From Nannocystis pusilla (lineage in GTDB: Bacteria > Myxococcota_A > Polyangia > Nannocystales > Nannocystaceae): a stretch of DNA of 64,000 nucleotides. This document shows, one piece after another, positions 2,665-46,210 of the stretch. The stretch spans positions 1,229,204-1,293,203 of the forward strand of contig NZ_JAPNKE010000002.1 in NCBI RefSeq assembly GCF_026626665.1, written 5' to 3'. Under the pieces are notes generated by a model that saw nothing but the letters and a program-made list of their open reading frames with translations, had not been told where the DNA came from and did not search any database. Position 1 is the first letter of the stretch. Each line of letters opens with the position of its first letter. Position numbers and translations under genes: made by a program.

Positions 2665-3269
2665 CCGCGAGGTCGCGAGGCCGATGCAGCGCGTTCAAGC
2701 GGCGCCGCCGGCCCGTGGCGCGTGTCCGCCCGAACGCGACGCGCAGCGGGCGCTAATCATCGCCTGTCCCAAAGTTTTAAATCGGTGTGGGCGACGGAAC
2801 GCCGGCAGAAGCGCGCGCAAGGCGGTCAAACCGCCGTTCTCCTGAAGTTGCCGCGGGCCCGTGATTGTGCGGTTGATCAAGCAACGAGCGGCGATCGTAG
2901 CGACGAAAGACCGAGTATCGGCGGGCGTACCGTGCATCGACGCGATCGTGGCTCGTATGCGGAGTGGGGGCGGATCACGGGCGCCGCGCGGCGGCGAATG
3001 GCACTTGTGCAGTGCGCCACGAATGCGGCGTTTCGGAGTGGTCGAGCTCGCCGTCGGCGCGTGAGACCAGAGTGGCGAAGAGGCGGCGGCGACGCTGGAG
3101 CCGCCGCGCCGTTTTGAGGGGCACGACTGCAAACGCGTGAAGACCGGGCGCGGGGGCGCCGGCGTGGTCGGCGTCACGCTGGGCGGCAGATCGGCGAGCG
3201 AGCGGCCGGTGGGGTTCGTGCCTCGCGCGAGGGTCGACGTCGGCGCGGGGACGTCGGCAGAGAATGACG

Positions 3270-3289
3270 ATATGTCTTTCGGGACATAT
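3270..3289. repeat. 20-bp perfect palindrome ATATGTCTTTCGGGACATAT, a member of the window-wide motif family
   Basis: Read directly: atatgtc-tttcgg-gacatat in the 1.1-kb non-coding gap between the kinase start and guaD. Confidence 0.6.
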
Positions 3290-3549
3290 TGATGACTGGG
3301 GCGAGACCGGGCCGGCGGGGAGGACGGCGCGATGGCTCGGCGGTGAGACTCGTTGCACAGGTGGCGCAGGAGCGCGGCGCGCAGGCGCGAGCGGCGAGGG
3401 CTTCGCGGTCGGCGCCGGAGAGGCCGGGCTTGTCGCCGACGGAGGGCGGCGAGGCCGGCGAGGTCGAGGGAGCGCGAATACGGGTGGCTCGTGGGCGTTG
3501 CGAGCGGTGCTCGGCGATGCGGGACGTCTGGAACGGACGGCCTCGTGAC

Positions 3550-5090: not shown

Positions 5091-6512
5091 ATGCTCCGCG
5101 AGACATATCCCCTGTTCCTCGGCGGCCGCGCGGTGCAGGCCAACTTCGACCTGCCCGTGCTGGACAAGTTCTCCGGCGAGGAGGCGGCCCGCGTGGCCCA
5201 GGCCGACCCGGGCACGCTCGACGCGGCGATCGCCGCCGCCGCCGGGACGACGCGGGCGATGGCCGCGCTGCCGCCCTACGCCCGCCAGGCCGCGCTCGAG
5301 CACTGCGCGCGCCAATTCGAGGCGCGCGCGGCCGAGCTGGCGATGGTGCTGTGCATCGAGGCGGGCAAGCCGATCCGCGACGCCCGCGGCGAGGTGGGCC
5401 GCCTGATCGAGACGTTCAAGGCCGCGGCGGCCGAGGTGACGCGACCGGCCGGCGAGGTGCTGGCGATGGCGAGCAGCCCGCGCCTGCGAGGCTACCGCGG
5501 CCAGTGGAAGCGGGTGCCGATCGGCGCGTGCTCGCTGATCTCGCCGTTCAACTTCCCGCTCAACCTGGCGGCGCACAAGATCGCGCCGGCGATCGCCGCG
5601 GGCTGCCCGTTCGTGCTCAAGCCCGCCAGCGCGACGCCGATCTCGGCGCTGCTGATCGGCGAGGTGCTGGCCGAGGCGGACCTGCCCGAAGGGTCATGGT
5701 CGATCGTGCCGTGCCCGCGCGCCGGCGCCGACGCGCTGGCCAGCGACGACCGCCTCAAGCTGCTCAGCTTCACCGGCTCGCCGGCGGTCGGCTGGGCGAT
5801 GAAGGCCCGCGCCGGCAAGAAGAAGGTGGTGCTCGAGCTCGGCGGCAACGCGGCCTGCGTGGTCGACGAGACCGCCGACCTCGAGAAGGTGGTGCCGCGG
5901 CTCGTCACCGGGGCGTTCTACCAGTCGGGCCAGAGCTGCATCAGCGTGCAGCGGATCATCGCCCACACGTCGATCTACGCCGAGCTGCGCGAGCGCCTGG
6001 TCGCGGCCGTCCGCGAGCTGCGCGTCGGCGACCCGCGCGACGAGGACACGTTCATCGGGCCGATCATCTCCGAGAAGGAGGCGAGCCGGATCGCCGCGTG
6101 GATCGACGGCGCGGTCAAGGCCGGCGCGCGCCTGTTGTGCGGCGGCCAGCGCGACGGGGTGATGGTGGCGCCGACGCTGCTCGAGAACGTGCCGCGCGAC
6201 CAGCCGATCGCCGCCGAGGAGGCGTTCGGGCCGGTGGCGCTGCTGTCGGAGTTCGCCAGCTTCGACGAGGCGCTGTGGCAGGTCAACGACAGCAAGTTCG
6301 GCCTGCAGGCGGGCGTGTTCACCCGCGACATCGACCGCATGCACCAGGCGTGGGACTCGCTCGAGGTCGGCGGGGTGATCATCAACGACGTGCCGTCGTT
6401 CCGCGCCGACCCGATGCCCTACGGGGGGGTCAAGGACTCCGGTCTCGGTCGCGAGGGGCTCCGCTTCGCCATCGAGGACATGTCGGAGATCCGGATGCTC
6501 GTGGTGCGGTGA
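5091..6512 (+). CDS. NAD(P)-dependent aldehyde dehydrogenase family protein
   Basis: MLRETYPLFLGG...FTGS...ELGGNA...GQSCISVQRII: ALDH catalytic Cys and Glu motifs. GAGG RBS before the ATG at 5091. Upstream residues of listed ORF 4623..6512 are read-through. Confidence 0.85.
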   Translation: MLRETYPLFLGGRAVQANFDLPVLDKFSGEEAARVAQADPGTLDAAIAAAAGTTRAMAALPPYARQAALEHCARQFEARAAELAMVLCIEAGKPIRDARGEVGRLIETFKAAAAEVTRPAGEVLAMASSPRLRGYRGQWKRVPIGACSLISPFNFPLNLAAHKIAPAIAAGCPFVLKPASATPISALLIGEVLAEADLPEGSWSIVPCPRAGADALASDDRLKLLSFTGSPAVGWAMKARAGKKKVVLELGGNAACVVDETADLEKVVPRLVTGAFYQSGQSCISVQRIIAHTSIYAELRERLVAAVRELRVGDPRDEDTFIGPIISEKEASRIAAWIDGAVKAGARLLCGGQRDGVMVAPTLLENVPRDQPIAAEEAFGPVALLSEFASFDEALWQVNDSKFGLQAGVFTRDIDRMHQAWDSLEVGGVIINDVPSFRADPMPYGGVKDSGLGREGLRFAIEDMSEIRMLVVR

Positions 6513-6516
6513 TGTG

Positions 6517-6556
6517 TCTTTTCGGGCATGTCGTCAGGGACATGTCCGAAAAGACC
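6517..6556. repeat. Perfect inverted repeat (17-bp arms GTCTTTTCGGGCATGTC / GACATGTCCGAAAAGAC, 6-nt loop) between convergent genes; motif family; possible bidirectional terminator or protein-binding palindrome
   Basis: Read directly. Starts 5 nt after the aldehyde dehydrogenase stop and ends 6 nt before the SDR stop. No U-tract. Confidence 0.6.
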
Positions 6557-7759: not shown

Positions 7760-8110
7760 GGCGGATGTCTCTTCGGACAGATGATCGAGGATGTCCGAAG
7801 AGGCAGGTGCTCGCGGCCGTGAGGCGCGGGCGTTTCGGACAGGCGCGCGCTTCGGTCGCGGAGTGACTGTCGCTTCGGACAGGTGCTCGCGGCCGTGAAG
7901 AGCGGGCGTTTCGGACAGGCGCGCGCTTCGGTCGCGGAGTGGCTGTCGCTTGGGACAGGTGCTCGCGGCCGTGAGGCGCGGGTTTTGGACAGGCGCGCTT
8001 CGGTCGCGGAGTGGCTGCTTCGGACGGGCGGGGCGCGGCGCCAGCTGTCGCTTGGGACAGGCGCTCGGCGCTGCAGGGCGGGGCTGTCTCTTCGGACAGG
8101 TGAACCGGCG
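7760..8110. repeat. Tandem repeat array, ~76-bp unit x ~3.5-4, each unit with two motif cores (TGTCGCTTCGGACAGGTG and CGTTTCGGACAGGCG)
   Basis: Units starting ~7803, 7877, 7953 and 8051 align with few substitutions. Terminal copy is ...CTGTCTCTTCGGACAGGTGAACCGGCG. Confidence 0.8.
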
Positions 8111-8929: not shown

Positions 8930-9250
8930 GGAGCCGGCGGCTGTCCTTGAGGGCAGGTCAGGAGCGCCCGGCGACGCGCGGCGGTCGATCGGAGGCTGTC
9001 CTGGGGGACAGGTGGCGTCGCGGCGGTAGCGAGCATCGGTGGAGTGCCGTCGCGGCGGCGGTCTCGAGCATCGGTGGAGTGGCGTCGCGGCGGCGGTAGC
9101 GAGAGCGGTTGCCCGGTAGCGACCGCGGCGAGGTCGGGGCGGCGGACTCGAGCATCGGTGGAGTGGCATCGGGGCGGTGGTGGCGAGAGCGGTTGCCCGG
9201 TCGCGACTGCGGCGAGGCCGGGTGCACCGACCTCGCCGCTCGAGCTGTCC
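8930..9250. repeat. Complex direct-repeat region: CGAGCATCGGTGGAGTGSCGTCGCGGCGGCGG x3 and GCGAGAGCGGTTGCCCGGTMGCGACYGCGGCGAGG x2, flanked by CTGTCC-N5-GGACAGG palindromes
   Basis: Read directly. The periodicity reappears as RSLPGNRSRYRRRDATPPMLE repeats in junk ORF 8958..9227. Confidence 0.6.
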
Positions 9251-13206: not shown

Positions 13207-15283
13207 GTGCGCAGATCGAGCCTCGTTTCCCTCGTCACCGTCGGCCTCGTCGCTTGCCAGGATCCGGCCGCGAGCAGCGCGACCGACGGCGCCTCGACCA
13301 CGGGGGCGAGCTCCGAGATGTCCCCGACGACAGGTCCGATGGAACCTGTCCCAACGACCTCGTCATCGGGCAGCTCCGGATCTACCGCCGCGCAGGACGA
13401 TTGCCCCGAGGGCTGCGCGACGGACGAAGCGTGCGTCGGGGGCAGCTGCGAGGCGGTCGGTCGCGCAGACATCGAGGCCGGCTGCCACCCGCTCGGCGAC
13501 CCGGCAGGCCGCGGCCAGTGCGTGTACCCGTGGCCGTCGAACTTCTACACGACGCCGACGGGCGACAGCCCGACGGGCCTGGCAGTGGCGCTGCCGGCGG
13601 CGCTGCTGCCGAAGAACACGCAGCAGGCCGAGTTCCCCGCAGACGAGTTCCTCAATGGGAAGCCAGGGTTCACCCCGAACGCGCAGCTCCGGTTCGCGTC
13701 GGCGCAGCCCGTCGACGGATCGTCGCTGCCGTCGCTCGGCGACATCGGAAGTTCGCTGGCCGAGGAGGCGCCGATCGTGCTGCTCGAGGTCGGCTCGGGG
13801 GAACGCTGGCCGTACTTCGCGGAGGTCGATGCGACGGCCGTGGCAGGCGAGCCCCAGACGATCTTCGTGCGGCCGATGCGACAGCCGCGTGCGGGCGAGC
13901 GCTACGTGGTCGCCGTTCGTGGGCTGCGAGATAAAAACGGCGAGGAGATCCCGACGTCGCCGCTGTTCCGCGCGCTGCGCGATGAACTGACGACCGATGT
14001 GCCGCAGCTCGAGGCCGAGCGCGCGCTACGACGAGATCTTCGCGGCGCTGGTCGCCGCAGGGATCGATCGCGGGTCGCTGCAGCTGGCGTGGGACTTCAC
14101 GACGAACACGCAGGCAGACCTGCAGCGCGACTTCACGGCGATCATGCCGCAGGTGGTGGCGAAGGCGGAGGCGGGCGACCTCGGCTACACGGTCGCGGAG
14201 GTGAGCGAGTTCCCGGGCACGGAGGTGCCGCTGGTGGTGCGCGGGACGTTCACGGTGCCGAGCTGCCTGGAAGGCGACAGCGGGCCCGGCACGGTGTTCG
14301 CCCGCGATCCGGAGGGGCTGCCGGACTGCTCGAACACGGCGACCGCGAACTTCTGGATCGCGGTGCCGCAGGCGATCTACGAGGCGAAGACGCCGGCGCC
14401 GGTGGCGGTGTACGGGCACGGGCTGCTCGGCTCGGGGTCGGAGGCGGAGTCGGTGGCGAAGAAGAACGGGTCGCTCATCATGGCGGGGACGGACTTCTGG
14501 GGGATGTCGGAGGCCGACATCGCAGCGGTGATCGGGATGCTCGGCGGCAACTTCGTCGGCGGCCGCACGCTGGGCGAACGACTGGTGCAGTCGACGGTGA
14601 ACTTCACGACGCTGGCATATCTGGCCCAGGGCGAGCTGGCGCAGGAGCCTGCGCTGCAAGGGTTGATCGACCCGTCGACGGTGTACTACGTCGGCGGATC
14701 GCAGGGCGGGATCATGGGGGCGACGGTGACGGCGATGGCGCCGAACCTGCGCCGCGGGGTGCTGGTGGTCGGCGCGTCGAACTACTCGCTGATGGTGTGG
14801 CGCTCGACGGCGTTCGAGCAGGTGAACTCGGTGTGGGCTGCGACGCAGCCGAGCACGCAGAACCGCGAGTTCCTGTTCGCGCTGTACCAGGCGGTGTTCG
14901 ACGTGGCAGACCCGGTGACGTACCGCTCGGTGATCGAGGAGGCAGGCGACGCGCTGCTGCTCATCGAGTCGATCGGCGACGCGCAGGTGGCAAACGTCGC
15001 GTCGGAAGCGATGGCCCGCTCGTACGGGATGCGGATGGCAGGGCCTTCGATCTATCCGGTGTGGGGAGTGGAGGATGCTCCGCCGGAGTTCACGGGGTCG
15101 GCGCTGCTGCAGGTCGATACGAAGAAAGGGCCGCTGCCTCCGGTCGAGAACCTGCCGGCCGACGGAGACAATGGAGCGCACGGGGCGGCAGTCGACGATC
15201 CGGCGGTGCAGGGGATCCTCGGGGCGTTCTTGCTCGAGGGAGTGGTGGCGAATATGTGCGACGGGGTTTGTGACCCGGGGTGA
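13207..15283 (+). CDS. Secreted lipoprotein, putative alpha/beta-hydrolase fold; apparent 1-nt frameshift near 14025
   Basis: GTG start. MRRSSLVSLVTVGLVAC lipobox, S/T-rich linker, Cys-rich segment. Continues in the frame of ORF 13997..15283 (RYDEIFAALVAAGIDRGSLQLAWDF...) with GHGLLGSGSEAES and GGSQGG nucleophile-elbow-like motifs. Confidence 0.65.
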
Positions 15284-15384
15284 CGGCGGCGGTTCGAGAG
15301 TGGCGGATCCGTGAATTGCTGGGGCGGAGGTTCGAGGGCGGTTCGTGAACCGCTGGGGCGGAGGTTCGAGAGTGGCGGTTCGCG

Positions 15385-15640
15385 ATTGCCGACTGCGCCT
15401 CGCGGGGGGTCCGGGGAAGGGCCGGCCGCGAGTTAACCGGCCGGATGCGCGCTCGTTCCTCGCACCCATCCTGCCTCTAATTCGCGGCCGGCCCTTCCCC
15501 GGACCCCTGGCACGGCTGCAGCCGTGAGAGGCCGCCTCGCCGTCGTCGGCTTCGCTGGGGGCTGTCGTCGGGAGCAGAGCCGGGGCGCCTGTTCGGCGGC
15601 CAGGGCTGGCCGCCGAACAGACGCTTTCTCGCGTCATTGA
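15385..15640. repeat. Structured repeat element copy 1 (~150-bp conserved core 15385..15528 with a long imperfect hairpin, a CACGGCTGCAGCCGTG palindrome and a GGCCAGGGCTGGCC palindrome)
   Basis: ~93% identical to 45644..45787 in the same orientation. Outer stem GGGGTCCGGGGAAGGGCCGGCCGCGA / TCGCGGCCGGCCCTTCCCCGGACCCC. Confidence 0.7.
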
Positions 15641-16059
15641 CGGCGTGGCATCTCCGCGCGGCGAGTGCTGGCGATCGCTGGCAGCGTGGCCGCCTTTGCC
15701 TGTCCCTGTCCCGCCTGCGCGTCTGCATGAGGCGAGTCCGCGGGCGCGAGGTGTCGAGCGTGCCGGGACTTGCTGCCTGTGCGCCCCCGTCGGGCCTCCG
15801 CGTAATCACGGGCGAAGCTGCGCGCGTCGATGAACGGTGAGCAACACGTTTACGAGGCTGTGCCCCGCTGCGGGCGCGCCTCGTCGAGTTTCGGACGATG
15901 AAGCGCGGCCGTCCGGCCCGGCAATGGTGCAACGAGCGGCCGCATGTCGCCGATCCATCGCCGCGCCACACGACGCCCCGGTCGGCGGGGGAGGCCATGC
16001 CTCCAGCGCGCTCGCTCGCGCGCGGAGGGATGTGCGCGGAGGCGGTGAGCCTGGCGACC

Positions 16060-16140
16060 AGGACATGTCCCTTGGAGAATGTCGGCCGGGCCATGTTGTA
16101 TAGGACATGGCCTTTAGGGCATGTCCTTCAGGGCATGGCG
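16060..16140. repeat. Motif cluster (GGACATGTCC / GGGCATGTCC / GGACATGGCC x5)
   Basis: Read directly, downstream of the vWA lipoprotein gene. Confidence 0.6.
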
Positions 16141-25664: not shown

Positions 25665-25940
25665 GAAGAACGTCTTATGAAGAGACAGGTGAGGGGCCGG
25701 GGCGCTCGTCCGGGCTCGTGCGGGCGCCTGGACGAGCGCGAAGGAGGATGGCCCGAGGGACAGGTGATGAGCCGCTTCGGGCCCGGCGGAGGATGTCTCG
25801 AAGGACGGGTCATGAGCGGCGGCGAGCGTTCGTGCCGGTGCCTGGGCGAGCGGGGGAGAGGATCGCTCGAGGGACAGGTGAGGAGCCGCGCCGGGCGCTG
25901 CAGAGGATGTCCCGAAGGACAGGTGATTCGGCGACCGGGT
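25665..25940. repeat. Tandem ~100-bp repeat x ~2.5 built from motif cores (GAGGATGTCYCGAAGGACRGGTGA / CGAGGGACAGGTGAKGAG), between exbD and tonB
   Basis: Read directly. Repetition also visible in junk ORF 25335..26006. Confidence 0.6.
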
Positions 25941-27880: not shown

Positions 27881-30524
27881 GGTGCCCATGACGCTGAGCG
27901 GGGGGCCGGCGGCGAAGTGGCGGGCGGGCAGGAGGGAGGATCGGGCGGGTGCCCCAGTCGGACACGAAGTTGTACTCGGTGGCGGCCCAGCGGCGGGCCA
28001 GCAGGTTGAAGGCCTCGACGCCGACCTCGACGACCGACCAGCGCACGGCGGCGCTGGCGTCGAGGAGGTGGACGGGGTCGGCGAACTGTCCGTAAGGCAA
28101 TGGCCGCGGGGACAGGTAGGAGTAGCCGAGGCCGACGCGCAGGCCGAGCGGGCGACCCTTGAGCTCCACGAGGTCCTTGTCGAGGCCGATGTCGGCGCGC
28201 ACGACGACCGGCGGGACGTAGGGCAGGAGCTGGCCGGGGACGTAGGGCGGGGAGGGGTTCTCGGCGGTGGCCGGCGGCGGGGCGCGCAGGACGGCGTGGA
28301 CGTAGGTGACGCTGCCGGCGGCGACCAGCCACGGGAGCGGGCGCGCGATCAGCTGGAGCGCGGCGCCGGCCCGCCGCGTCGGACCGACTTTCTCGAGCCG
28401 GCCCTCCTCGGGGTCGAAGGCGAGGTCCTGGGCGAGGAAGGTGGCGAAGCCGGCGGCGCTGAGCTGGAGGCGACCGCCGAGCGGGCTCATGCGCACGCCA
28501 CCCTCGGTGCTGTGGACCTTGGCGAACGGGGCCCGCTCGCCCTCGTCGAGCTGGCGCGCCTGCGGCGAGCGGTAGCCCTGGCCGTAGGCGGCGAACAGGC
28601 TGACCCAAGGGACAGGCGCGACCTCGAGGCTGACGCGCGGGCCGGCGGCCACGCCGGTGGCGGTGCGGCGGTGACCGACGAGGTGGCTCTCGACCTGGTA
28701 GGGGGCGATGAAGTTGCCGAGGCGGTCGTCGATGTCGTAGTGGAGGACGTCGGCCCGACCGCCGCCGCGCAGGCGCACGCGCTTGCCGAGGCGGAGGTCG
28801 AGGTCGCCGTAGAGGCCGACGTCGCTGGCGAGGACGGTGGCGTCGACGCGCCGGTCCCAGGTCTCGTTCTGCGGCGCTTGCAGCAGGTTCTGCGCCTGCT
28901 GGATGTTGTGGATCCGGGCGGCGGCGCCGACCTCGAGGGCGGCGTGGAACCACGGGGCGGGGCGCCATCCGGCTGTCCGATGGGACAGGCGCATGCCGCC
29001 GCCGAAGTCGCGGTTCTGCTGCTCGATGAGGTCGCCGCGGCCGACCCACTGCGGCATGACGACGCCGCGCTGGGTGTAGCCGGTGAAGTTCTCGCGGCTG
29101 TGGAGGTCGACGAGGGCGGTCCACACGGCCATGCGGGTGACCGCGCCGCCCTCGCCGCGGCGCTCGAGCTCGAGCGAGAGGTGGCCGCGCGCGGCCGAGG
29201 CGGACTGGCTGTTGGCCGAGGGGTCGCCGTAGCTGTCGTAGAAGCCGACGACGCCGGCGGCGACGTCGTCGCGGCGCAGGACGCCGGCGAGGCCGGCCCG
29301 CGCGGCGTAGGCGGCGACGTGGACCTTGCCGCGCCAGCCGCCCGCGGCCGAGAAGGCGAACTGGCCCATGGCCATGCCCGAGAGGCCGCCGCGGTTCATG
29401 CCGAAGCCGCGGGTGCGACGGACGGCGGCGGCGGCGAAGGTCTCGTCCTCCTGGCCCTTGGGGGCCCACAGGACGAGCTGGCGGAAGGTGGCGAAGGAGC
29501 CGCCGGTGCTGCGCAGCTGGATGCCGCGGCGCGGGACGGCGAGGTCGAAGTCGATGCTGCCGGCGACGGCGAAGTCGCCCTGCCGCGGGTCGTAGACGCC
29601 CTCGGTGACGCGGATCGATCGTACGGTCTCGGGGACGATCCAGTTGAGGTCGGCGTAGCCCTGGCCGTGCAGGTGCGAGACCTGGTTGAGCGGCAAGGCG
29701 CCGGCGGTGATCTCGATGTCCTGGCCGTGCGCGGCGTTGAAGCCGCGCAGGGTGATCTCGTGCGCCACGGCCTCGCCCTCGGCCCGCGCGACGTAGACGC
29801 CGGGGGCGCTGCTCAGCATGTCGGCGGCGCTCTGCCGCGGCGGGGCGGCGAGGACGTCGCGCTCGACGACGAAGTCGCTGGCGGCCCGCGGCGGCGGCCG
29901 CCGGCTGCGCGCGGCGACGTCGAGCACCGGCTCGGGCTGGCTGGCCGAAGGGGCAGGTTGGGACGGGCTGGCCGAAGGGGCAGGTTGGGACGGACCCGGC
30001 TGGCTGGCCGAAGGGACAGGTTGGGGCGGACCCGGCTGGCTGGCCGGAGGGACAGGTTGGGAGGGGGCCGGCTGGCTGGCCGGAGGGGCAGGTCGGGAGG
30101 GACCCGGTTGGCTGGCCGAAGGGGCAGGTTGCCCGGGCGGGGCCGAAGGGGCAGGTTCACCGGCGGGCGCCTCGGCGGGCTGGGCCGGCGGGGCGAAGTT
30201 GAAGGGCACGCGGATCTTGACGGCCACCGCGACGTCGTCCCGGCGCGCCGGGTCGAACCGCCACTGCTTGACCGCGGCGACCGCGGCGTCGTCGAAGGCC
30301 GCGCCGCCGCTCTTCAGCACCTCGACGGCGCCGACCCGCCCGTCGGCCTCGACGGTGACCGCCAGCTTGACCGCGACGACGTCGCTGCGCGCCTCGGCGA
30401 GCGGATAGACGGCGTCGACCCGGGTCCGCGGGCTCGGCGGGACGACCGCGGGCGCGGCCCAGCCCGGCGAGGCCCACAGGCACGCCGCGAGGCAGGTGCA
30501 GAGCGTGGCGCGAGCGCGTGGCAC
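27866..30524 (-). CDS. TonB-dependent receptor with N-terminal TonB-C-like domain and Pro-rich repeat linker; apparent 1-nt frameshift near 27935
   Basis: Signal peptide, TonB-like block (VKLAVTVEADGRVGAVEVLKSGG...AVKQWRFDP), SQPxPSxPAPPA repeats, plug and barrel. The true C-terminus ...PLSVMGTLTLHF* (terminal aromatic) is in a shifted frame. The listed ORF instead runs on to 27066 in the wrong frame. Confidence 0.8.
29930..30170. repeat. ~30-bp tandem DNA repeat encoding the Pro-rich linker of the TBDR (coding)
   Basis: GGCTGGCTGGCCGAAGGGGCAGGTTGGGACGG repeated ~7 times; translates on the minus strand to ...SQPGPSQPAPSASQP... Confidence 0.6.
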
Positions 30525-35814: not shown

Positions 35815-36110
35815 GCGCTCGGCAGGGGTGAGGGACATGTCCGAGAGGGCATGTGATCGGGGGCATGTTTTTTCGGGCATGTCCGAAGAGGCAGGCTTCG
35901 CGGGCGGTGAGCGCGGGGTCGGCGCGGGCATGTGTTCGGGGGGATGTTTTTTCGGGCATGTCCGGAGAGGCAGGCTTCGCTTGGTCGGTGCGGGCACGTG
36001 CTCGGGGCATGCGCTCGCGGACTCCGCGGGACAGAGGGCGTTCGAGGGGCGGGCGGACATGTCCTCGGCGACATGTGCTCGCGGGCATCCGCGATGAGCA
36101 GGTCGCGGGC
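35815..36110. repeat. Dense motif cluster with a ~80-bp direct repeat (GGGCATGTTTTTTCGGGCATGTCCGRAGAGGCAGGCTTCGC x2) upstream of the RND efflux operon
   Basis: Read directly. At least 8 GGGCATGT/GGACATGTCC cores in 300 bp. Confidence 0.7.
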
Positions 36111-41861: not shown

Positions 41862-41985
41862 AGACGGCGGCGGGTTCGCGCGACGCTGGTGTCCCTGGCG
41901 ACATGTCCGATACGACATGCGCCCAGGGGCATGTCCAGGGAGACATGCGCTTACGGGCATGTCCCGGGCGACATGCGGCAGCGGC
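41848..41985. repeat. Motif cluster (GGGACATGTCTTCAGGGACATGAAGAC ... GACATGTCCGATACGACATGCGCCCAGGGGCATGTCCAGGGAGACATGCGCTTACGGGCATGTCCCGGGCGACATGCGG)
   Basis: Read directly. Spans the last codons of czcA and the convergent gap to the GGT gene. Confidence 0.7.
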
Positions 41986-44665: not shown

Positions 44666-45607
44666 ATGACCGTCAGTAAGCCCCACCTCGTCGTCGTCGG
44701 CAGCGTCGCCATCGACTGGATCATCACGCCCCGCGCCGAGCGGCCCGAGAGCGTCGGCGGATCGGCGACCTTCTTCGCGATGGCGGCGTCGTACCTGTCC
44801 CAGGTGCGGCTGGTCGGCGTGGTCGGGCGCGACTTCCCCGACTACGCGGTGGCCGACCTCAAGGCGGCGGGCGTCGACACGTCCGGCCTCGAGATCGTGC
44901 AGGACGGGCTGACCTTCCGCTGGAAGGGCCAGTACCACGAGAACATGAACGACCGGACGACGCTCGAGACGCACCTCAACGTGTTCGAGAAGTTCCAGCC
45001 GCGCCTGCCGGACGAGTTCCGCGGCAGCGAGTTCCTGTTCCTGGCCAACATCCAGCCGCGCCTGCAGAGCGACGTGTTCGCGCAGATGCAGCGGCCCCGC
45101 CTGGTCGGCCTCGACACGATGAACCTGTGGATCTCGATCGCCAACGACGACCTCAAGGCGGTGCTGAAGAACGTGGACGTGCTGACCCTCAACGACGAGG
45201 AGGCCCGCCAGCTCAGCGGCGAGCACAACATCGTGAAGGCGGCCCGCGCGGTCCGGGCCCTCGGACCCCGCAACGTGGTGATCAAGCGCGGCGAGTACGG
45301 GGCGCTGCTGTTCGACGCGGACGGCGAGGTGTTCTCGGCGCCGGCGCTGCCGCTCGAAGAGGTGGTCGACCCGACGGGCGCCGGCGACAGCTTCGCGGGC
45401 GGCTTCATGGGCTACCTGGCCCGCCCAGGCGTGGAGACCAGCGGGGCCTCGCTGCGCACGGCCATGATCTACGGGTCGGTGATGGCTTCGTTCTGCGTCG
45501 AGGGGTTCTCGTACGACCGGCTGAAGGGGCTCGATGCGGCGACGATCCAGAAGCGCTTCGAGACGTTCGCTTCGCTGACGAACTTCGCTCGGGCCTCGTT
45601 GACCTGA
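44666..45607 (+). CDS. PfkB-family carbohydrate/nucleoside kinase
   Basis: Ribokinase-like fold: N-terminal VVVGSVAIDWI, C-terminal DPTGAGDSFAGGF (anion hole/GAGD) motif. Confidence 0.8.
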   Translation: MTVSKPHLVVVGSVAIDWIITPRAERPESVGGSATFFAMAASYLSQVRLVGVVGRDFPDYAVADLKAAGVDTSGLEIVQDGLTFRWKGQYHENMNDRTTLETHLNVFEKFQPRLPDEFRGSEFLFLANIQPRLQSDVFAQMQRPRLVGLDTMNLWISIANDDLKAVLKNVDVLTLNDEEARQLSGEHNIVKAARAVRALGPRNVVIKRGEYGALLFDADGEVFSAPALPLEEVVDPTGAGDSFAGGFMGYLARPGVETSGASLRTAMIYGSVMASFCVEGFSYDRLKGLDAATIQKRFETFASLTNFARASLT

Positions 45608-45639
45608 GCTGTCTTTCGAGACAGAGGCGCAGAGGCTTC

Positions 45640-45890
45640 GCTAATTGCCGACTGCGCCTCGCGGGGGGTCCGGGGAAGGTCCGTCCGCGAGTTAACCGAC
45701 AGGATGGACGCTCGTTCCTCGCGCCCATCCTGTCTCTAATTCGCGGCCGGCCCTTCCCCGGACCCCTGGCACGGCTGCAGCCGTGAGGAGCCGCCGCGCC
45801 GAACCCGGCTCCATTCGGGAGCGGGGCCGAGAGGCGCTCGTCGGCGTCGATGCGACGGCCAGGGCTGGCCGTCGCATCGACGCTTCTCGC
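45640..45890. repeat. Structured repeat element copy 2 (core 45644..45787)
   Basis: Matches 15385..15528 in the same orientation. Inner stem GACAGGATGG / CCATCCTGTC is perfect in this copy. Confidence 0.7.
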
Positions 45891-46210
45891 GGGCTTTCGG
45901 CGCGGCTCGCTTCGTTGGTGGGTGCGCGAGCGAGGGGCCAGCGGCACGGTGGGCGAGTTCGAACCGACCGCGGCGCCGATCGTCACAGTGGTGACCGGTC
46001 GTCGACGAGGAGCATGCATCGCTCAGGTGACCATGGTTAATTTCGACGCGGTGAGAGCGAGCGAGTTACGCGCTGATCGGGTGAATCTCCTGTAGGAAAT
46101 CGACGCAGCAGAGTCGGCATTCGGAAGGGTAGACGCAGGACCTACGACCTCGGGCGCCTGAGACGCACTGTGTTGTGGGGACGCGGCGCCGCGCGTATCG
46201 TCACTCGAGC

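Follow-up and report, generated by a model that had tools for sequence, protein, structure and literature searches.

What kind of element is represented by two highly structured repeats that lie in direct orientation about 30 kb apart in a 64,000 nt stretch of the Nannocystis pusilla genome (contig NZ_JAPNKE010000002.1, positions 1,229,204 to 1,293,203; hereafter the window)? Both copies were found to belong to a family of two-domain units, which share one architecture, keep their base pairing, are conserved between orthologues, and are placed and oriented in a regular way with respect to genes. Most consistent of all is the link between domain 1 and the 3′ end of a gene with the same orientation. 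Our tentative preference, drawn from sequence comparison, is for an RNA module that would be transcribed as the tail of the upstream mRNA and would act in 3′-end processing, stability or termination.

Extent and anatomy of the unit

A repeat search of the window returned a gapless direct repeat of 242 nt with 83 % identity (15385-15626 and 45644-45885); the two copies thus lie where the first-pass annotation, a reading of the letters without database searches, had placed them. Pairwise alignment resolved a near-identical core of ~145 nt, which a variable stretch separates from another conserved block. The core is what had been described as an element of ~150 bp; it is real, but it falls short of the whole unit, which measures ~273-279 nt (15377-15649 and 45635-45906) and includes a GC hairpin and a 3′ segment. 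Profile searching set the limits in the window at 15377-15655 and 45635-45913 and found no third copy within it, and the 12 full copies delimited by the profile are 274-281 nt long. Chance origin of the repeat is excluded. A 15-mer from the hairpin arm occurs five times at up to two mismatches (0.5 expected by chance), the palindrome and the P3 motif described below likewise exceed chance expectation, and folding z scores of −7.8 to −12 were obtained for both strands of both window copies against shuffled sequences.

The consensus fold consists of domain 1 (columns 1-159) and domain 2 (columns 161-279). Domain 1 is a giant hairpin of 156-159 nt, in which the outer arms are invariant, the inner stem varies and the apical loop GCTCGTTCCTCGC is conserved; the inner stem of copy 2 (GACAGGATGG/CCATCCTGTC) is perfect, as had been noticed earlier. 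The 16 nt perfect palindrome CACGGCTGCAGCCGTG, with TGG directly 5′ of it, was recovered in both copies and is nearly invariant in the family, with one substitution in locus L010. Domain 2 (~115 nt) is closed by a 10 bp long-range stem, GMCnCGCCGT/ACGGCGnGKC, which encloses a variable segment, a 19 bp GC hairpin (P3) and a pyrimidine-rich segment; the conserved 3′ segment ACGGCGTGKC pairs back with the GMCnCGCCGT directly 3′ of the palindrome. The motif GGCCAGGGCTGGCC of the first-pass annotation, present at 15598-15611 and 45857-45870, proved to be the tip of P3. P3 and the closing stem of domain 2 both carry compensatory differences between copies 1 and 2. The parts of the two copies are as follows.

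15377..15532, plus strand: copy 1, domain 1, giant hairpin (consensus fold, inverted repeat)
15390-15435 / 15478-15524, plus strand: copy 1, outer arms (fold)
15439-15447 / 15467-15475, plus strand: copy 1, inner stem (fold)
15448-15466, plus strand: copy 1, apical loop, contains GCTCGTTCCTCGC (fold)
15511..15526, unstranded: copy 1, palindrome CACGGCTGCAGCCGTG (exact match; sigma-54-like in spacing only)
15534..15649, plus strand: copy 1, domain 2 (consensus fold, covariation)
15534-15543 / 15640-15649, plus strand: copy 1, closing stem of domain 2 (fold)
15544-15583, plus strand: copy 1, variable segment
15584-15625, plus strand: copy 1, GC hairpin P3 (fold)
15626-15639, plus strand: copy 1, pyrimidine-rich segment TTCTCGCGTCATTG
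45635..45791, plus strand: copy 2, domain 1, giant hairpin (fold)
45649-45694 / 45737-45783, plus strand: copy 2, outer arms (fold)
45698-45706 / 45726-45734, plus strand: copy 2, inner stem (fold)
45707-45725, plus strand: copy 2, apical loop (fold)
45770-45785, unstranded: copy 2, palindrome CACGGCTGCAGCCGTG (exact match)
45793..45906, plus strand: copy 2, domain 2 (consensus fold)
45793-45802 / 45897-45906, plus strand: copy 2, closing stem GCCGCGCCGA / TCGGCGCGGC, perfect (fold)
45803-45842, plus strand: copy 2, variable segment
45843-45884, plus strand: copy 2, P3 hairpin (fold)

The ends of the unit (GCTTCGCGAATTGCC... and ...ACGGCGTGTC) are not complementary to each other, the hairpin arms being internal, and the complementarity of the flanks does not exceed that of shuffled sequences. 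A miniature inverted-repeat transposable element (MITE), which had been offered as an alternative to an ncRNA (non-coding RNA), found no support: no terminal inverted repeats, complementary flanks or target-site duplications were seen, copies are few, and these occupy orthologous positions across species. An integron attC site does not fit either: the outer ends of the hairpin are without RYYYAAC/GTTRRRY core sites, and the unit is flanked not by cassette arrays but by conserved housekeeping genes.

Kept pairing and history of the family

In the alignment of the 14 distinct full copies, 96.7 % of the cells are paired. Double changes were counted at 16 pairs, compared with 6.9 ± 1.6 in shuffled alignments (0 of 500 reached 16) and 3-6 in slid controls, and they are present in every helix. 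Pairing is therefore kept by compensatory change, and the G-C to A-T exchange on which the first-pass annotation had based its hint of selection (columns 65/100) turned out to be one among many. The inner stem changes from GGATG/CATCC to GCATG/CATGC and is fully replaced in L003 and L015; the outer arms carry double changes in L015 and L018; P3 changes from UGUU/AACA to GAUG/CAUC; and in the closing stem of domain 2 an A-U pair is replaced by C-G in five copies. Conservation also extends to the loop: a CCTC-type apical motif was found in 13 of the 14 copies, including L003 and L015 with their fully replaced stem sequence.

Copy 2 and the copy in L004 both follow a PfkB gene and form an orthologous pair. 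The units are 93.2 % identical (domain 1, 97.5 %; domain 2, 87.7 %), the PfkB coding sequences 96.8 % (third positions, 92.6 %), and the intergenic DNA directly downstream of the unit aligns with only ~48 % identity. As judged from these comparisons, the element is kept by purifying selection.

The arm pattern (21 specified bases) was used to scan one genome per species, which yielded 14 loci, 13 of them in Nannocystis (N. exedens DSM 71, N. radixulma, N. bainbridge and strain RBIL2) and the fourteenth a chance match. By using the profile, ten full units were recognised in the Nannocystis loci, which together with the two window copies make up the 12 delimited above; partial copies lie in L008, L011 and L012. 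The exact-pattern scan gave one to six copies per genome; the 64 kb window has two. Metagenomes contributed two divergent full copies from one sample (L015 and L018), the other four of six pattern matches being chance matches, and viral contigs gave no match. No match was found outside Nannocystis, to which the family is, on the evidence of these scans, restricted. Since 12 further full copies thus exist in four Nannocystis genomes and one metagenome, the pair in the window is not the remnant of a segmental duplication, which had been entertained for the case of only two copies; an ncRNA, as had been suggested, appears plausible from the sequences.

No Rfam 15 family matched anywhere in the window at the gathering threshold, and a relaxed-E scan of copy 1 returned only miRNA models of the GC-hairpin kind. 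As a control, a bona fide Mx162 retron ncRNA was submitted to Rfam and was missed as well, with false matches to miRNA hairpins only; the silence of Rfam is therefore uninformative on retrons.

Orthologous copies occupy the PfkB, RimK and acyltransferase loci. Between paralogues identity amounts to 67-91 %, and the closest pairs are orthologues; the family is therefore older than the species splits, and its copies are not being homogenised. Individual copies have been truncated. The RimK-locus copy is full in L010 and L018 and ends at the apical loop in N. exedens (L008), and the acyltransferase-locus copy is full in L009 and lacks domain 2 in L012. L031 (GCA_049337375.1, positions 2443-2700, set against the window from 45608 onward) comes from a close relative whose PfkB protein is identical, and it has retained no more than the initial ~22 nt of the unit (GGTTCGCTAATTGCCGACTG); the DNA past this remnant is absent from the window and the other loci, and the LysR gene is absent. 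L031 was broken by a rearrangement at the hairpin base and is not a clean empty site, of which none was found. Duplication has occurred, too. Downstream of the full unit in L009 (N. exedens DSM 71, 5600-6031) lies a tandem array of four to five decaying 3′ modules (P3 hairpin plus tail, ~86 nt), and such a module occurs once on its own (L006, 861-936). L011 (N. radixulma, 2972-3389) carries a head-to-head palindromised double copy, in which the left arm of the hairpin has been replaced by a mirror of the right side, with the palindrome and domain 2 pointing outwards both ways; its right flank is duplicated with L003.

These histories bear on a DNA-level palindromic repeat of the REP (repetitive extragenic palindromic)/BIME (bacterial interspersed mosaic element), Correia or MITE type, which would not function as RNA in its own right, would be tolerated nowhere but at the 3′ ends of genes, and would owe the complementarity of its arms to intramolecular template switching or gene conversion and not to selection on a product. 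We give this explanation little credence. In its favour are truncations that coincide with the palindrome or fall within it (apical loop in L008, hairpin base in L031, end of domain 1 in L012), the double copy of L011 and the tandem duplications at the unit edges, and other short palindromic repeats abound in the intergenic regions of this genome. It does not sit well, however, with the lack of terminal inverted repeats and target-site duplications, the low copy number, orthologous positions across species, or a conservation between orthologues that greatly exceeds that of the intergenic DNA beside the unit. Besides the helices, loop motifs and unpaired segments have been conserved, and template switching is a poor explanation for covariation over ~100 nt, as seen in the 10 bp closing stem of domain 2.

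Attachment to gene 3′ ends, strand and promoter evidence

At eight of the nine independent Pfam-verified loci, a co-oriented gene stops 25-250 nt (often only 25-45 nt) ahead of domain 1. On this side the genes are functionally unrelated and encode a Peptidase_S9-like protein, PfkB, RimK, an acyltransferase, DAHP synthase, a Ser/Thr kinase, a hybrid histidine kinase and a CDP-alcohol phosphatidyltransferase. On the domain 2 side the intergenic DNA extends over 137 to >1000 nt, often with tandem repeats, and the next gene lies in either orientation. Orientation of the unit relative to flanking GC skew, taken as a proxy for the direction of replication, splits six loci against four, by which a replication-strand explanation was ruled out; orientation is therefore tied to the neighbouring gene, which points to its transcription. 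This regularity speaks against a DNA-level repeat as well, as REP-type elements generally occur in both orientations. In the window the upstream features are as follows.

13997..15283, plus strand: 428 aa gene, weak Peptidase_S9/alpha-beta-hydrolase match; ends 94 nt before copy 1
15285..15379, plus strand: 34 nt tandem repeat, 2.6 copies; between the upstream stop codon and copy 1
44666..45607, plus strand: PfkB-family kinase gene; stop codon 27 nt before copy 2

The PfkB kinase gene had been named correctly (E 7e-36). For the gene before copy 1, described as encoding an alpha/beta-hydrolase lipoprotein, the search gave only a sub-threshold match to Peptidase_S9 (alpha/beta-hydrolase fold). 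Copy 2 is followed by a LysR regulator gene on the plus strand and copy 1 by a convergent 528 aa gene. The 34 nt repeats before copy 1 resemble the 5′ edge of the unit (GGTTCGnGA...), and a comparable 24 nt array lies 5′ of the unit in L009. A small hairpin, CTGTCTTTCGAGACAG, is located between the PfkB stop codon and copy 2.

For the 3′ untranslated region (3′ UTR) module that we tentatively prefer, we infer transcription, strand and function together. The element would be transcribed in sense (plus strand) as the tail of the upstream gene's mRNA, because the gap after the stop codon is usually too short to hold a separate promoter, and the RNA would fold into the giant hairpin of domain 1 and the closed domain 2. 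The duplex of ~45 bp could be a barrier to 3′ exonucleases and/or a processing site for RNase III, and P3 with the CUUCUC that follows could weakly end transcription. A structured RNA of high stability might be set free, with the pyrimidine-rich loops UUCCUC (CCUCC in divergent copies) and CUUCUC exposed. Pyrimidine- or U-rich sequence follows the hairpins on the plus strand only; P3 has the tail CUUUCUCGCG or CUUCUCGCG, in which no more than three U stand in a row.

Several observations weigh against this module. In a scan of both copy regions by consensus, neither showed a canonical intrinsic terminator. A small hairpin between stop codon and unit, present in several loci, could already terminate the upstream mRNA. 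In the exceptional locus L015, the gene on the domain 1 side (YceI-like) is divergent, and the unit there can therefore not be a 3′ UTR. The loss or truncation of copies at orthologous loci (L008, L012 and L031) means that no single copy is indispensable, and compensatory changes in a palindrome can also arise by DNA template switching without any RNA function.

The strand of the transcript is a further difficulty. Mismatches were recounted with 1×1 internal loops included and the two weakest helices excluded, which gave 44 G.T cells at 11 positions and 54 A.C cells at 13 positions. Fixed G.T positions lie in the core of domain 1 (columns 30/135 and 57/108), and fixed or majority A.C positions in its outer extension (17/149 and 26/139) and in P3 (218/251 and 226/243). 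For the whole unit, the minus strand gives the more stable fold in 11 of 14 copies, and for P3 it does so in 12 of 14, with a tie in the domain 1 core; the consensus energies are −146.7 kcal/mol for the minus strand and −138.5 kcal/mol for the plus strand. An assignment to the plus strand from the number of G.U pairs was ruled out by the recount and the energies of the individual copies, the first G.U count being biased because its pairs had been chosen by the plus-strand fold. The functional strand is thus not readable from the sequences, and folding slightly favours the minus strand. The near-equal frequency of G.T and A.C mismatches is what a DNA-level repeat would lead one to expect, with the RNA of neither strand selected.

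Both strands come into play if the units are independent small RNA (sRNA) genes, an explanation that we regard as quite unlikely. A minus-strand sRNA would start in the long spacer beyond domain 2 and end at the giant hairpin. Alternatively, TGGCACG-N4-CAGCC would act as a sigma-54 promoter for a plus-strand domain 2 RNA of ~115 nt, with domain 1 as the upstream activator site. The spacers on the domain 2 side are long enough to accommodate a promoter, the slightly more stable strand is the minus strand, and the unit in L015, which adjoins a divergent gene, would need a promoter of its own. For the sigma-54 version, the −24 element TGGCACG is perfect, the GG-N10-GC spacing is right and TGGCACG is kept in 12 of the 14 full copies; transcription would start ~11 nt past the −12 GC, exactly where the closing stem of domain 2 begins, and the 5′ and 3′ ends of that RNA would therefore be paired.

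The sigma-54 hint of the first-pass annotation nevertheless found no clear support. The loose pattern TGGCAC-N7-GC, found in the window only in the two copies, is expected there 4.1 ± 1.9 times by chance; the −12 element reads CAGCC instead of TTGCW; and the conservation of TGGCAC is explicable without a promoter because it lies inside an invariant helix. Covariation of the domain 1 arms indicates base pairing and not protein half-sites. The A.C and C.A mismatches that the plus strand shows in P3 in most copies would be awkward for a plus-strand domain 2 RNA. Scanning both copy regions revealed no sigma-70-like promoter on either strand, and no promoter-like block is conserved beyond the edges of the unit.

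Possible retron relation and known repeat families

An older record from the same genus raises a further possibility. Repeats resembling multicopy single-stranded DNA (msDNA) in N. exedens were reportedly described by Lampson and Rice in 1997. A passage in Simon et al. (PMC6868368) refers to msDNA-like repetitive sequences without a reverse transcriptase (RT) in N. exedens, under the name Retron-Nex1/Ne160. The present family might be this RT-less msr/msd-like repeat, with the minus strand as the retron-sense RNA, domain 2 as msr and the domain 1 hairpin as msd; msDNA of ~160 nt would then be made by an RT encoded elsewhere, or the copies would descend from retrotransposed msDNA. We consider this relation unlikely, with arguments on both sides.

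As far as they are described, the Ne160 repeats share with the family the genus, the occurrence in several copies without a nearby RT, and a hairpin of ~156-159 nt beside a shorter domain with several hairpins. The RT motif PQG..SP...Y[x]DD was not found in any frame of the 64 kb window or of loci L001-L014. Domain 1 (156-159 nt) comes close to 160, a purely numerical likeness. Read on the minus strand, which folds slightly better, the short-hairpin domain 2 (~115 nt) precedes the long hairpin of domain 1 (~156 nt), as msr precedes msd; no branching-G context was identified on that strand. In N. exedens itself, four to five extra tandem domain 2 modules are present in L009.

Against a retron origin, complementarity of the a1/a2 type between the flanks stays within the range of shuffled sequences in 13 of 13 copies (RNAduplex), and in the consensus folds the domains are closed separately instead of by one terminal a1/a2 stem. 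Neither an RT nor an effector gene adjoins the units, the neighbours being PfkB, RimK, LysR, ATP synthase and similar genes, and unlike retrons the units follow stop codons of housekeeping genes, and they do so at orthologous loci. Homology to Mx162-type retrons was looked for in both directions. An nhmmer profile of the Mx162-type (type XIII) ncRNA was built from five genera, with loci fetched by using an Mx162 RT query that is 98 % identical to the real protein; the profile (blocks including CGCAAGGTAGCCTGTTCTTGG and CCGGTGAGGCTACCGTGCCCCAGG) detected a retron at 54 % RT identity with E 2e-29, but gave no match in the window or the Nannocystis loci. Conversely, the unit profile had no match in six Mx162-type retron loci and four loci with more distant RT relatives. 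A search of representative proteins and inspection of three further loci returned no Nannocystis retron. Dead retrocopies, moreover, would not keep their pairing, their orthologous sites or a placement near gene 3′ ends at eight of nine loci. The Mx162-type ncRNA itself (L021, 2680-2940, and L023-L027) was seen to have long invariant blocks common to Cystobacterineae and Sorangiineae and covarying msd stems.

A bolder version, which we hold to be highly doubtful, would make the units "orphan" msr-msd genes, i.e. syntenic, selected templates, several in each genome, served in trans by an RT encoded elsewhere and giving rise to the 160 nt msDNA reported from N. exedens in the 1990s. If true, this would be a multi-copy ncRNA uncoupled from its RT, a type absent from current retron classifications. 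A milder alternative is a new two-domain 3′ UTR RNA cassette with an anti-Shine-Dalgarno loop, reused behind many genes.

The nearest precedents for a 3′ UTR module are found among interspersed repeats. REP/BIME and ERIC (enterobacterial repetitive intergenic consensus) elements of enterobacteria and the Correia elements of Neisseria are palindromic repeats co-transcribed as part of 3′ UTRs, in which they stabilise mRNA or are cut by RNase III. By analogy, the element would work most like such a 3′ UTR interspersed hairpin repeat: it too is intergenic, hairpin-forming, genus-restricted, present in several copies, located at gene 3′ ends rather than at promoters, and might plausibly act on the upstream mRNA. 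In contrast to these repeats, the unit is longer and composite (~275 nt, two domains, a long-range stem), has a very low copy number, is nearly fixed in orientation, and is old and syntenic, without terminal inverted repeats or target-site duplications. Membership of REP/BIME in particular was rejected; the location at 3′ ends fits, but size (~275 nt versus 20-40 nt), copy number (low versus hundreds) and the nearly fixed orientation (eight of nine versus both) do not.

Two regulatory RNA systems offer partial parallels. The 3′ UTR of icaR in Staphylococcus aureus carries an anti-Shine-Dalgarno UCCCC motif, and sRNAs derived from 3′ UTRs are related modules. The Nannocystis unit resembles these in lying directly after the stop codon in sense orientation, and its conserved CCUC loop motifs could pair with Shine-Dalgarno sequences; it differs in that the same cassette is found behind many unrelated genes. 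The Qrr sRNAs of Vibrio, which are multi-copy and sigma-54-dependent, would be the model for an sRNA family: several paralogues are present per genome, the TGGCACG box lies at the right distance from GC, and a structured segment of ~115 nt follows downstream. In the Nannocystis unit, however, the −12 element is non-consensus, the box lies inside a stem, no activator gene is linked and the pattern does not exceed chance.

The family is without an Rfam model, in a group (myxobacteria) whose non-coding elements are poorly charted, and provides a concrete candidate for a new 3′ UTR or sRNA module in a genus that is of interest for natural products. It may also be the sequence behind the nearly forgotten report of 1997 on RT-less msDNA-like repeats; if so, conservation across species would argue for functional loci and not for dead retrocopies, which would be of interest to the retron field. 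Even as a palindromic repeat that is only tolerated, the unit would be a useful marker of rearrangement hot spots in Nannocystis.

Other repeats were encountered in the same DNA. The palindromic decamer GGRCATGTCC occurs 64 times in the window at up to one mismatch (8.0 ± 3.3 in shuffled sequences) and clusters in intergenic regions, often in runs with a spacing of ~14 or 28 nt. Examples are located at 6524-6547, 16061-16126, 35833-36064 and 41899-41964, as well as in the flanks of L003, L005, L013 and L014, and in several copies of the unit the variable segment contains related motifs (ATGTCC...GGGACAGGT). Further tandem or near-tandem arrays were located at 29903-30145, 7789-8083, 9014-9216 and 25716-25927, with periods of ~36, 76, 84 and 114 nt, and several of them carry motifs of the GGACAGGT type.

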